Shown here: in pieces, positions 5,904 through 6,700 of the stretch
How the letters are laid out: each line of letters begins with the position of its first letter
How positions within the stretch are numbered: position 1 is the first letter of the stretch
Source: a virus
Lineage: Duplodnaviria > Heunggongvirae > Uroviricota > Caudoviricetes
Direction: 5' to 3' (one strand)
Virus record (IMG/VR): IMGVR_UViG_2565956721_000002
DNA: 64,000 nucleotides
The notes under the pieces: model-generated
Database searches by the model: none
What the model was told of the DNA's origin: nothing
What the model saw: only the letters and a program-made list of their open reading frames with translations
Position numbers and translations under genes: made by a program

Positions 5904-6700
5904 GCACAACAGGTAAGGGTATTTTGCGACGTCGGAGATCGCCGAGCTTGGCAGAGGGTTCGAATCCCTACGAAGTACCCTTACCGTTGTGATGAATGCG
6001 CAGGCTGATGCGCGAAAGACATTGCAGCTATTGCGGAAAAGAGCTGTTCGGCGGGGCAATTAAACGCCCGTGAGAGTCTGAAATAACCGCAAGCCGGAGA
6101 TCAGCACCGGTCATCACAACACAACAGGTAAGGGCATTCTCCCTTATGGGGCTTGGCTTAAATGCATCGAGTGCTCTTACCGTTGTGATGAAGTGCAGCT
6201 CTTTGAAGCAACCAGAAGATAAGCATCTGGCTTCACAACATAAACCGCAGGAACGACCAATAAACGGTAGTCCGTATGGAGAACACCCCGTTGAGGAAGA
6301 GGCCTGGCCGGAACCGTAACCGGCACTACAACGTTGAGAACACTGGCGTAACGGGGTCATATCCCAATCTACGAATAAATGTTGCGTTGCAGCGTGACAA
6401 CCAGTGTTCTCAACATTGTGGTGAATGCACAGGCTGATGTGCCGCAACTACAGTAGTGCGCGCTTTGCGGGGCTTGCTACAACCCTGTGTCGGAGTTCAG
6501 CACCGACCATCACAGTTTGATTCTCTGGCATGAGCATAACGCTGAAATAAGTCCAGCCTGGTGCGGCCCGATCACCCGCCGTTAGCTCCACGAAACGGAG
6601 CACGTAACAGGTAAGAACATTCTCCTGTAACGGGTTCATATCCCAATCTACAGGTCCACCAAGAATGCTCTTTCCGTTGCGGTGAATGCGGCTAAGCGCA
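5904..6700. repeat. array of degenerate tRNA-derived or tRNA-like structured repeats
   Basis: at least four related units (about 5904-5990, 6110-6190, 6330-6445, 6600-6690) sharing 5' ACAACAGGTAAGG and 3' CTTACCGTTGTGATGAATGC ends; internal T-loop-like GGTTCGAATCC / GGTTCATATCCC; unit at 6600-6690 resembles the 3' half of tRNA-Asn; the track ORFs crossing them look spurious. Confidence 0.5.

Follow-up and report, generated by a model that had tools for sequence, protein, structure and literature searches.

A modular array of two structured-RNA scaffolds in a P1-like phage and in other enterobacterial phages

Directly behind its genes for tRNA-Asn and tRNA-Thr, the P1-like phage/plasmid studied here (IMG/VR record IMGVR_UViG_2565956721_000002; "the window" is the whole 64-kb stretch of DNA that was analysed) carries a run of repeats, and the question this locus raises is whether they are remnants of tRNA genes or something else. 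An earlier note had described them as one set of related units at 5904-6700, and had offered decayed tRNA duplicates, processed small RNAs or tRNA mimics as explanations. Our analysis identifies the region as a modular structured-RNA array of two widespread scaffolds, unannotated in many enterobacterial phages, that spans 5462-6806 on the + strand, which is the transcribed strand. Its folds are under purifying and compensatory selection as RNA on that strand, and its scaffolds are common to several unrelated enterobacterial phage groups; its units are not tRNAs, and the open reading frames (ORFs) overlapping them are not coding.

Over positions 5300-6900, the window shares 99.9% identity with phage vB_EcoM-813R1 and 99.6% with RCS47. 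In the P1 reference annotation, one strand has, in this order, the Pban promoters, a dicF-like region, the tRNAs, the repeats, trnI, and ban. The C1-controlled promoters P1ban and P2ban (operator Op72) lie upstream of the homologous stretch, and trnI and the helicase gene ban follow the array on the same strand. From this layout, the array lies inside the long untranslated leader of the early, C1-repressed ban operon.

Two interleaved families of RNA elements

The string AACAGGTAAG occurs exactly four times in the window, always on the + strand (at 5469, 5908, 6123 and 6606); with at most one mismatch there are 11 matches where 2.9 are expected, a count reached by 0 of 100 shuffles. CTTACCGTTGTG is found exactly at 5980 and 6176 and as variants at 6409 and 6670, and the tail that the earlier note saw in two units (GTGRTGAATGC-RCAGGCTGATG) indeed stands at 5989 and 6418, with 82% identity over 34 nt. 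In a repeat search, the 3' and the 5' boundaries fall into families, as does a third repeat. The stretch 5904-6810 folds better than its shuffles (z = -6.3), as do the long stems already noticed by eye, the individual hairpins having z-scores of -3.6 to -7.3; the fold of 5284-5750 has z = -3.5. The repeats behind the two tRNA genes thus are real and non-random. The units share boundaries as described, but they are not of a single type: two families alternate on the + strand, the B hairpins (B0 to B4) and, between them, the A elements (A1 to A4). The proposed extent is likewise correct in that the repeats do lie at 5904-6700 but too narrow in its limits, with B0 upstream of the tRNAs and the last element ending at about 6800. 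At the junctions, blocks of about 45 nt recur as near-inverted copies, one formed by an A 3' end plus a B 5' arm, the other by a B 3' arm plus an A 5' end. The features are as follows, R1 being a covariance model of the B stem.

5462-5550, + strand: B0, upstream of the tRNAs; arms CACAACAGGTAAGGGCGCTG / CAGCGTCCTTTCCTGTTGCG; apical hairpin loop UGUGAUUAA; R1 23.1 bits; z = -3.6
5551-5749, + strand: A0-like structured spacer, ending in hairpin GCCGG-AGACGTAC-CCGGC directly before tRNA-Asn
5750-5825, + strand: tRNA-Asn(GTT), called by ARAGORN; Rfam tRNA 74.5 bits
5828-5903, + strand: tRNA-Thr(TGT), called by ARAGORN; Rfam tRNA 72.9 bits
5905-5991, + strand: B1; 21-bp stem with a bulged A; R1 58.7 bits on the + strand against 26.6 on the - strand; z = -5.8
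5986-6120, + strand: A1 (A-alpha); closing helix GTTGTGATG/CATCACAAC
6120-6187, + strand: B2; 27-nt insert; stem with one G.U pair; R1 58.2 bits; z = -5.6
6182-6239, + strand: core of A2 (small "gamma" type); closing helix GTGATGAAG/CTTCAC; string GCTCTTTGAAGCAA; hairpin CCAGA-AGATAAGCA-TCTGG
6240-6323, + strand: spacer of repeat family D2, ending in hairpin CCGG-AACCGTAA-CCGG, like the last hairpin of A elements
6324-6423, + strand: B3, divergent; 23-nt arms CACTACAACGTTGAGAACACTGG / CCAGTGTTCTCAACATTGTGGTG; inverted repeat I1, 91% complementary; z = -7.3
6415-6516, + strand: A3 (A-alpha); complementary loops GGCTGA and AGTTCAGCA
6517-6602, + strand: spacer with hairpin GCTCC-ACGAAAC-GGAGC, conserved in Klebsiella and Cronobacter temperate phages
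6603-6682, + strand: B4; insert CCTGTA-ACGGGTTCATATCCCAATC-TACAGG, then TCCACCA; R1 47.6 bits on the + strand against 16.1 on the - strand; z = -4.4
6676-6806, + strand: A4 (A-beta), STnc100-like; closing helix GCGGTG/CACCGC; last hairpin CCGGG-AGGCA-CCCGG; T6 at 6801-6806; z = -3.6
7904-7979: tRNA with CAT anticodon, called by ARAGORN and Rfam

The spacer at 5551-5749 probably belongs to the A type, as its final hairpin resembles the last hairpin of the A elements.

The B hairpins share a basal stem of about 20 bp, in which CACAAC and, after one bulged A, GGTAAGRGCAYTG pair with CAGTGCTCTTACC plus GTTGTG, and carry apical inserts of 27 to 60 nt that are unrelated between copies. R1 finds B0, B1, B2 and B4 in the 64-kb window and nothing else there (all within 5462-6685, with much higher scores on the + strand); the divergent B3 escapes it. 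Elsewhere R1 finds 36 sites in 24 diverse sources, among them P1-likes, lambdoids, Uetakevirus, Nonanavirus, Ackermannviridae and a Serratia genome. A degenerate pattern of the B hairpin, run on genome contigs, gave almost exclusively chance matches in unrelated phyla; the only plausible ones are in Erwinia and in Serratia, the latter confirmed by R1. In 18 distinct B stems, 97.4% of cells are paired (a somewhat inflated value, see below), a level reached by 0 of 500 shuffles and far from the 33-60% of slid controls; compensatory changes are present at 10 of the 19 pairs, and a single U.G pair is kept in 17 of 27 stems. Among other phage contigs, the inserts on this stem scaffold are of at least ten unrelated kinds. 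Such a fixed scaffold with a variable insert offers a natural chassis for engineered RNAs in phages.

The A elements are held together by closing helices of 7-10 bp. Those of the A-alpha type (A1 and A3) start with UGAAUGC followed by a hairpin GCRCA-GGCUGA-UGYGC, and their last hairpin, YCGG-AGWUCAGCA-CCGR, stands before the closing strand. Between the loops, GCUGA(U) is complementary to (A)UCAGC, and a doubly compensated variant combines GGUCGA with UUCGAC. In A1 the first hairpin is GCGCA-GGCTGA-TGCGC and the last CCGG-AGATCAGCA-CCGG, again with complementary loops, while both hairpin stems of A3 show compensated changes (GCACA/TGTGC and TCGG/CCGA). In IMG/VR, two pattern scans gave at least 229 distinct A-alpha units with more than 200 different interiors. 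At the five freely varying pairs of the closing helix, whose positions belonged to no search pattern, 96.8% are paired as against 62.9% with shuffled partners (0 of 500) and 33-64% in slid controls, over 68 helix variants. A1 is 96-98% identical in lambdoid phages, and the stretch containing it matches 1314 of 5426 complete E. coli genomes, about a quarter; none of the 40 E. coli matches listed has an annotation for the element. A2 has homologs with covarying closing helices in the Nonanavirus PJ16 and in the P22-like SPN9CC, where an N-like gene follows 24 nt downstream. The stem of the last hairpin of A4 covaries in relatives as well (CCTGG/CCAGG).

The earlier note had named the presence of the repeat family in relatives as a check, and it is found in P1-likes and in many other phages. 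In every independent context inspected, the elements have the orientation of the genes that follow. In mEp460 and in an E. coli prophage, they are found in pL-type leaders, close behind a cI-like repressor and promoter. They also stand immediately behind Q, pR' and tR', with the holin gene next, a place in which an E. coli prophage has the B2 unit. The 9NA-like PJ16 has them as an autonomous unit, from promoter to terminator, that separates capsid from neck genes, and the virulent Ackermannviridae phage K751 in a 3.3-kb unannotated stretch beside tRNA-Met, in the P1 order. Very often the first gene of an operon begins 10-60 nt downstream of the modules, and these genes include N-type antiterminators (of the 933W/HK97, P22 and other types). 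Among the loci listed, tRNAs lie within 1.5 kb of A-alpha in 23 of 238 (on the same strand in 37 of 39 cases), and a T run follows A-alpha within 110 nt in 69 of 236. The e14 prophage of E. coli K-12 is without these elements. One E. coli prophage with B and A1 in a pL-type leader (locus L128) has a C4 antisense RNA (82 bits) and IsrK (64 bits) adjacent, at 982-1170 on the - strand.

Close relatives differ by exchange of whole modules. P1 lacks 196 bp (A1 and B2) through exchange between two CTTACCGTTGTGATGAA repeats, and SJ46 lacks 279 bp between two GTAACGGGKTCATATCCCAATCTAC repeats; in P7 and Ro157c2YLVW, B2 lies directly 3' of tRNA-Thr; P7 and D6 have a different A3, a tRNA-Ser, and a different B4 insert; and Ro157c2YLVW has an extra tRNA-Tyr between tRNA-Asn and tRNA-Thr. 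Because P1, P7, D6, SJ46 and Ro157c2YLVW differ exactly at the repeats, the conserved arms appear to serve as recombination joints also. In Ro157c2YLVW, and in that relative only, a 129-nt ORF with its own start is situated between A2 and B3 (2434-2562 of its locus). Among known mobile sequences, miniature inverted-repeat transposable elements were rejected because the interiors differ among copies; integron attC sites (AAC/GTT base, bulged base, variable top) were rejected also, given that their core motifs are not matched, an integrase is missing, and the hairpin would enclose the "cassette".

This mosaic spread across unrelated phages, together with the strongly conserved sequence of the near-inverted junction blocks and the recombination of P1 relatives exactly there, is what one would expect if selection acted on DNA alone, the inverted blocks being recombination boundaries, linker sequences or cruciforms with no RNA function. 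We nevertheless think such a role quite unlikely. The stems covary, and the extensive compensatory change means that pairing is kept and not sequence identity. G.U pairs far outnumber A.C mismatches (50 against 9 in the B stems, 23 against 7 in the A-alpha closing helices), a strand asymmetry that includes the conserved U.G pair, which on the opposite strand is an A.C mismatch. The orientation follows the downstream genes in all contexts inspected, and T-arm-like hairpins (discussed below) occur on the transcribed strand only. Covariation, G.U excess and orientation together place the selection at the level of RNA.

tRNA likeness and the overlapping reading frames

ARAGORN and Rfam at gathering thresholds find only the three tRNAs given above. 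In agreement with the statement in the earlier note that no unit folds as a canonical cloverleaf, ARAGORN calls none on the units, and a search of 1.6 kb with the Rfam tRNA model gives no match on them at E<=10. The T-loop-like strings noted before are confirmed, GGTTCGAATCC at 5957, GGGTCATATCCC at 6354 and GGTTCATATCCC at 6633. A T-arm with a 5-bp stem and a 7-nt TTCRANY loop is present in B1 with 4 of 5 pairs: its insert consists of the canonical AGGG-TTCGAAT-CCCT and a small hairpin with a GG loop. The corresponding stems of B3, whose insert is a three-way junction including GGG-GTCATAT-CCC, and of B4 are GGG/CCC and no longer than 3 bp, and their loops read GTCATAT or TTCATAT. T-arm-like hairpins are enriched in A-alpha interiors (9 of 205, against 0.05 expected, and none on the reverse complement) and recur in inserts of both families in other phages. 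The T-arm-bearing cargo therefore is real, yet it is not what defines the repeats. Since the T-arm is canonical in B1 and enriched in A-alpha interiors, tRNA mimicry may apply to a subset of the inserts; as the basis of the repeat family, it fails.

Could the units still be pseudo-tRNAs, that is, decayed duplicates of the neighbouring tRNA genes produced by tandem duplication? Their local alignments with tRNA-Asn and tRNA-Thr score 6-11, at the level of shuffles (means 7.5-8.1, maxima 12-18). By the same measure, the likeness that had been seen between the 6600-6690 unit and the 3' half of tRNA-Asn is not above chance, its score of 11 comparing with a shuffle mean of 7.7 (sd 1.5, maximum 13). 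In B1 the T-arm is stacked on an acceptor-like helix next to the GG-loop hairpin, B3 and B4 have loops of the TTCATAT type, the B4 insert ends in TCCACCA, and real tRNAs occupy slots of the same scaffold (Ser in D6 and P7; Tyr in Ro157c2YLVW); all this, with the T-arm-like hairpins of the A-alpha interiors, would suit such an origin. However, the part that is repeated is the stem scaffold, which has no similarity to tRNA and holds the unrelated inserts mentioned above, B4 of one P1 relative is without the T-loop-like part, and tRNA detection is negative throughout. Decay from tRNA genes is therefore very unlikely. The placement of real tRNAs within the scaffold is regular: the tRNA-Asn/tRNA-Thr pair is flanked by an A-type last (3') hairpin and a B-type 5' arm, and the tRNA-Ser of D6 and P7 is placed in the same manner.

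Several stable RNAs with tRNA-like parts are known, such as YrlA/Y RNA, the tRNA-like domain of tmRNA (transfer-messenger RNA), the stable RNAs of the T4 tRNA cluster, and the C4 RNA of P1/P7 that is processed by RNase P. B1 likewise combines a helix of its 5' and 3' ends with a canonical T-arm, lacks an anticodon arm, and lies in a tRNA cluster; unlike in those RNAs, the T-arm is dispensable in relatives, and neither a CCA end nor a Ro partner was seen. The sole match of the YrlA model (RF02553) is on the real tRNAs at 5770-5887 (25.6 bits against 69), and there is none on the units or on T-arm-bearing A-alpha elements. YrlA/Y RNA, ROOL/GOLLD, ribozymes and other Rfam families gave no matches at permissive thresholds.

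Three ORFs cross the region. The one at 5678-5992 (+ strand) overlaps both tRNAs, and those at 6028-6447 (139 aa) and 6448-6777 (109 aa) on the - strand correspond to plp ("putative lipoprotein") and upl, annotated as coding sequences in P1 (NC_005856) and RCS47 (FO818745). All three had been suspected to be artefacts, and this view is borne out by the lack of a Pfam match and of codon bias and by frequent frameshifts. For the two minus-strand ORFs, counts of single-nucleotide polymorphisms by codon position over about 120 related loci (19/23/28 and 9/17/11) show no third-position bias, the ratios of synonymous to nonsynonymous changes are 21:47 and 11:26, two variants create new stops, and frameshifting deletions are common (1 nt in 36 loci; 2 nt and 13 nt in others). 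The pieces of the array moreover occur separately in other phages, irrespective of the ORF limits. Against this, the open frames and their annotation are all that speaks for genuine Plp and Upl proteins, which we hold to be extremely improbable. P1 plp and upl most likely are not genes but the antisense of structured RNA, which would correct a 20-year-old annotation. That plp of P1 ends differently and overlaps trnT is explained by the 196 bp that P1 lacks inside this ORF.

Candidate functions in the leader transcript

Of the explanations offered at the outset, processed small RNAs is still the most plausible. Extending it, we propose with moderate confidence that the modules are co-transcribed processing and stability scaffolds that punctuate a leader carrying tRNAs and small RNAs (sRNAs), and that yield small stable RNAs. 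The modules would fold co-transcriptionally. The stems of B1 to B4, with 19-23 bp and one bulge, amount to about two turns of mostly Watson-Crick helix, as in RNase III sites, and by their length and by analogy could be cleaved by a double-strand-specific (RNase III-type) enzyme. Such cuts, together with those of RNase P and RNase E at the tRNAs, would release the tRNAs from the leader, leave the A elements as compact small RNAs with ends protected by the closing helix, and make the downstream mRNA independent of the leader. In the leaders of N genes, this arrangement would likewise uncouple nutL and the start site of N, on the model of lambda. The conserved arms would in addition act as joints at which recombination swaps inserts, tRNAs and whole modules.

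RNase III processing stems are known from T7 early RNA and from rrn operons. The array resembles these in that stems of at least 20 bp punctuate a polycistronic transcript that carries tRNAs also, in that this architecture is conserved, and in a boxA-like string beside the 5' strand of a long-range helix; it differs in that there is no sequence similarity and that its stems bear variable apical inserts and occur in unrelated temperate and virulent phages. Another parallel is the leader of lambda N, the structure of which is reportedly processed by RNase III (work attributed to Wilson et al., 1997 and 2002). Between nutL and the N start, lambda has a structured segment closed by a GU-rich long-range helix (GGGGTGTGTG...CACACACC), and A-type elements hold this position in 933W, SPN9CC and many IMG/VR phages, with similar flanks (ctttGGG... 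/ ...CCaccaaag). The interior of the lambda segment is unrelated, without the conserved GGCUGA and AUCAGC hairpins; the window, unlike lambda, has no N gene and no nut boxB, and cutting of A and B elements by RNase III is a prediction. The sequence between nutL and N has been called "highly structured" in a paper that cites work on the modulation by RNase III of N translation repression (PMC5725501). Through this link to the lambda N leader and that to STnc100/PasD (see below), the ways in which phages assemble, process and trade non-coding RNA (ncRNA) cassettes, tRNAs included, in early leaders can be treated in one testable framework.

Several points weigh against the proposal that these modules are processing scaffolds. 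Literature searches found no transcript, cleavage or binding data for the P1 ban-leader region, and that RNase III cleaves here is deduced purely from how long the stems are and from known parallels. The closing helices of the A elements are short for this enzyme. The B arms are more conserved than pairing alone needs, which suggests a specific partner, and the near-invariance of the A-alpha loops and junction, again beyond the needs of pairing, hints at a sequence-specific one. The pairing percentages given above for B stems and A-alpha helices are somewhat inflated because the alignments were gathered partly by fixed patterns or by a structure-fitted model. The T6 tract behind A4, finally, is absent in P1 and D6.

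A partner for the B arms could be sought among the Nus factors. Most B 3' arms hold the string GCUCUU(A/U), which they share with lambda nutR boxA and rrn boxA. The 3' arm (UGCUCUUAC / UGCUCUUUC) would then serve as boxA, with a GU-rich, boxC-like strand and a hairpin behind it, and would recruit NusB/E, keep RNA polymerase from Rho termination on the 2.7-kb untranslated leader, and chaperone the long-range helices. A hairpin does follow the B 3' arm after 12-14 nt, the elements occur in pL-type leaders, where nut sites lie, and the closing strand GGGGTGTGTG of the lambda N leader, which we take to be boxC-like, is GU-rich like the strand behind the arm. In most B 3' arms, however, the boxA-like string (in the sense of GCUCUUUA) is base-paired, sequestered in the covarying 20-bp stem, and covariant stems lose it, for example B1 with UACCCUUACC and others with UAUUCUUACC or CGCCGUUUCC. 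933W and a second locus (L305) have separate nutL boxB hairpins upstream of the A element, the B hairpin of one prophage sits after the terminator that it should override, the ban operon is without an N gene, and P1 is not known to have an N-like protein. A Nus-site function is improbable in our view, although in rRNA a BoxA-tethered loop is thought to promote formation of the RNase III stem (PMC4807359). The put-type antitermination RNA of HK022 was considered and rejected: R1 finds nothing in the HK022 immunity region, and one B hairpin lies downstream of the terminator on which it would have to act.

For the A elements, the nearest known RNA is STnc100. A4 matches the Rfam model (RF02076) with 37.8 bits and E = 2.9e-6, below the gathering score of 47; A1, A2 and A3 are without a match. 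A4 aligns to model positions 31-147 and has the closing helix, the GGUGAAU junction and the last hairpin CCGGGAGGCACCCGG in common with it. Like the array, STnc100/PasD is prophage- or phage-borne, and A1 and A3 have the same overall layout; STnc100 differs in being a stand-alone gene, A4 being embedded in a polycistronic leader. PasD is a prophage sRNA seen by Hfq RIL-seq and validated by northern blot (bioRxiv 10.64898/2026.05.13.724894). By analogy, A4 may be an Hfq-bound sRNA as well. Taken to its end, this would make the A elements trans-acting, Hfq-dependent sRNAs with hypervariable interiors as target seeds, and the B hairpins mere spacers. The mRNA partners of PasD in RIL-seq, the stand-alone promoter-to-terminator units among A-alpha copies, the T runs downstream of a part of the listed loci, and the more than 200 interiors on one fixed scaffold are all compatible with this. 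Many A-alpha copies, on the other hand, stand 10-60 nt before a start codon with no terminator, as a cis-acting leader element would, and A1 and A3 in the window are without a U-tail. We consider this unlikely as the whole explanation, and it overlaps with the scaffold proposal and does not exclude it. Apart from the weak STnc100 match to A4, no family of Rfam 15 recognises A or B elements, and a full-text literature search for their sequences found nothing; the two abundant phage RNA scaffolds defined here are matched in neither.

A tmRNA-tag-like frame and other neighbours of the array

Upstream of B0, at 5346-5378 on the + strand, is a frame without a start codon, GCA AAC GAT GAT CTG ATG ATG GTA GCG GCC TAA, that reads ANDDLMMVAA* and has the marks of a tmRNA tag: an Ala resume codon, no start codon, and an AA-stop end. 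Within 5289-5378 it is preceded by GGTTTTCGTCATGG, and its stop codon lies in the loop of a small hairpin. The match to the Rfam family tmRNA_permuted is below threshold (24.1 bits against 47), ARAGORN calls no tmRNA there, and a tRNA-like domain or partner acceptor piece was not found. At least ten divergent tag variants (ANDDVVLMAA, ANEEVYLAVA, ANEERFLMAA and ANDNTFLAVA among them) head the same module series in lambdoid, 9NA-like and Ackermannviridae phages. In the loci examined, which come from one scan of viral contigs plus a few other loci, 84 tag frames are without a detectable tRNA-like domain and 35 lie inside tmRNA genes called by ARAGORN, the four inspected all being permuted, with the gene in two pieces. 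Their 5' domain, GGTTTCGACAGGG, is similar to the GGTTTTCGTCATGG of P1. Permuted tmRNA genes on three IMG/VR contigs (L500, L563 and L584) encode the tags ANDERFLMAA, ANDEQFLMAA and ANDELFLAAA, close to the orphan phage tags. A recent capture of ssrA does not explain the module, since E. coli ssrA has no BLAST similarity to P1-like phages; a literature search for phage tmRNA-like tags gave nothing relevant. The loop GGCUGAU of the first A-alpha hairpin (6002-6008 and 6431-6437) is identical to nt 3-9 of E. coli ssrA, that is, the acceptor 5' strand of the tmRNA plus AU, and this 7-mer match may be a coincidence.

The covarying closing helix, the invariant UGAAUGC junction, the two invariant loops capable of kissing, and the variable arm would also befit a sensor. 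On this speculative and rather unlikely reading, A-alpha would be an undescribed sensor or regulatory RNA class of phage early leaders, riboswitch-like or binding a specific host factor, and not a passive processing site. The B scaffold and the orphan tmRNA-tag module would join it in an "ncRNA operon" that is mobile horizontally and common to P1-like, lambdoid, 9NA-like and Ackermannviridae phages.

Hairpins with the loop UGUGAUUAA(UAA) or UGUGUAUUAGG are situated at 5437-5465, in the interval from the tag-like frame to the first B hairpin, and at 5482-5500, inside B0 (+ strand); they are conserved in unrelated phages and recur in the loci L252, L250 and L094. Klebsiella phage K751 (L250) has the series of tag-like frame, B, A-alpha, A-beta and tRNA-Met at 1472-4809, and at about 2120-2190 a tRNA-like gene, not called by ARAGORN, with acceptor, D and T arms and a 3-nt "anticodon" loop.

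On its upstream side, the tag-like module is adjoined by the dicF-like region of P1 (5193-5284, + strand), for which no Rfam DicF match was seen and which ends in a terminator-like hairpin TGCCCATCTTCGGGTGGGCG followed by T7. Downstream of the array, at 6832-7876 (+ strand), follow a small membrane ORF and a gene for an SPFH/Band 7 domain protein (Pfam E = 1e-30), named "putative serine protease" in RCS47. These two replace the tciA/B/C (TerB-like) genes of P1, and therefore point to a module swap at the end of A4.

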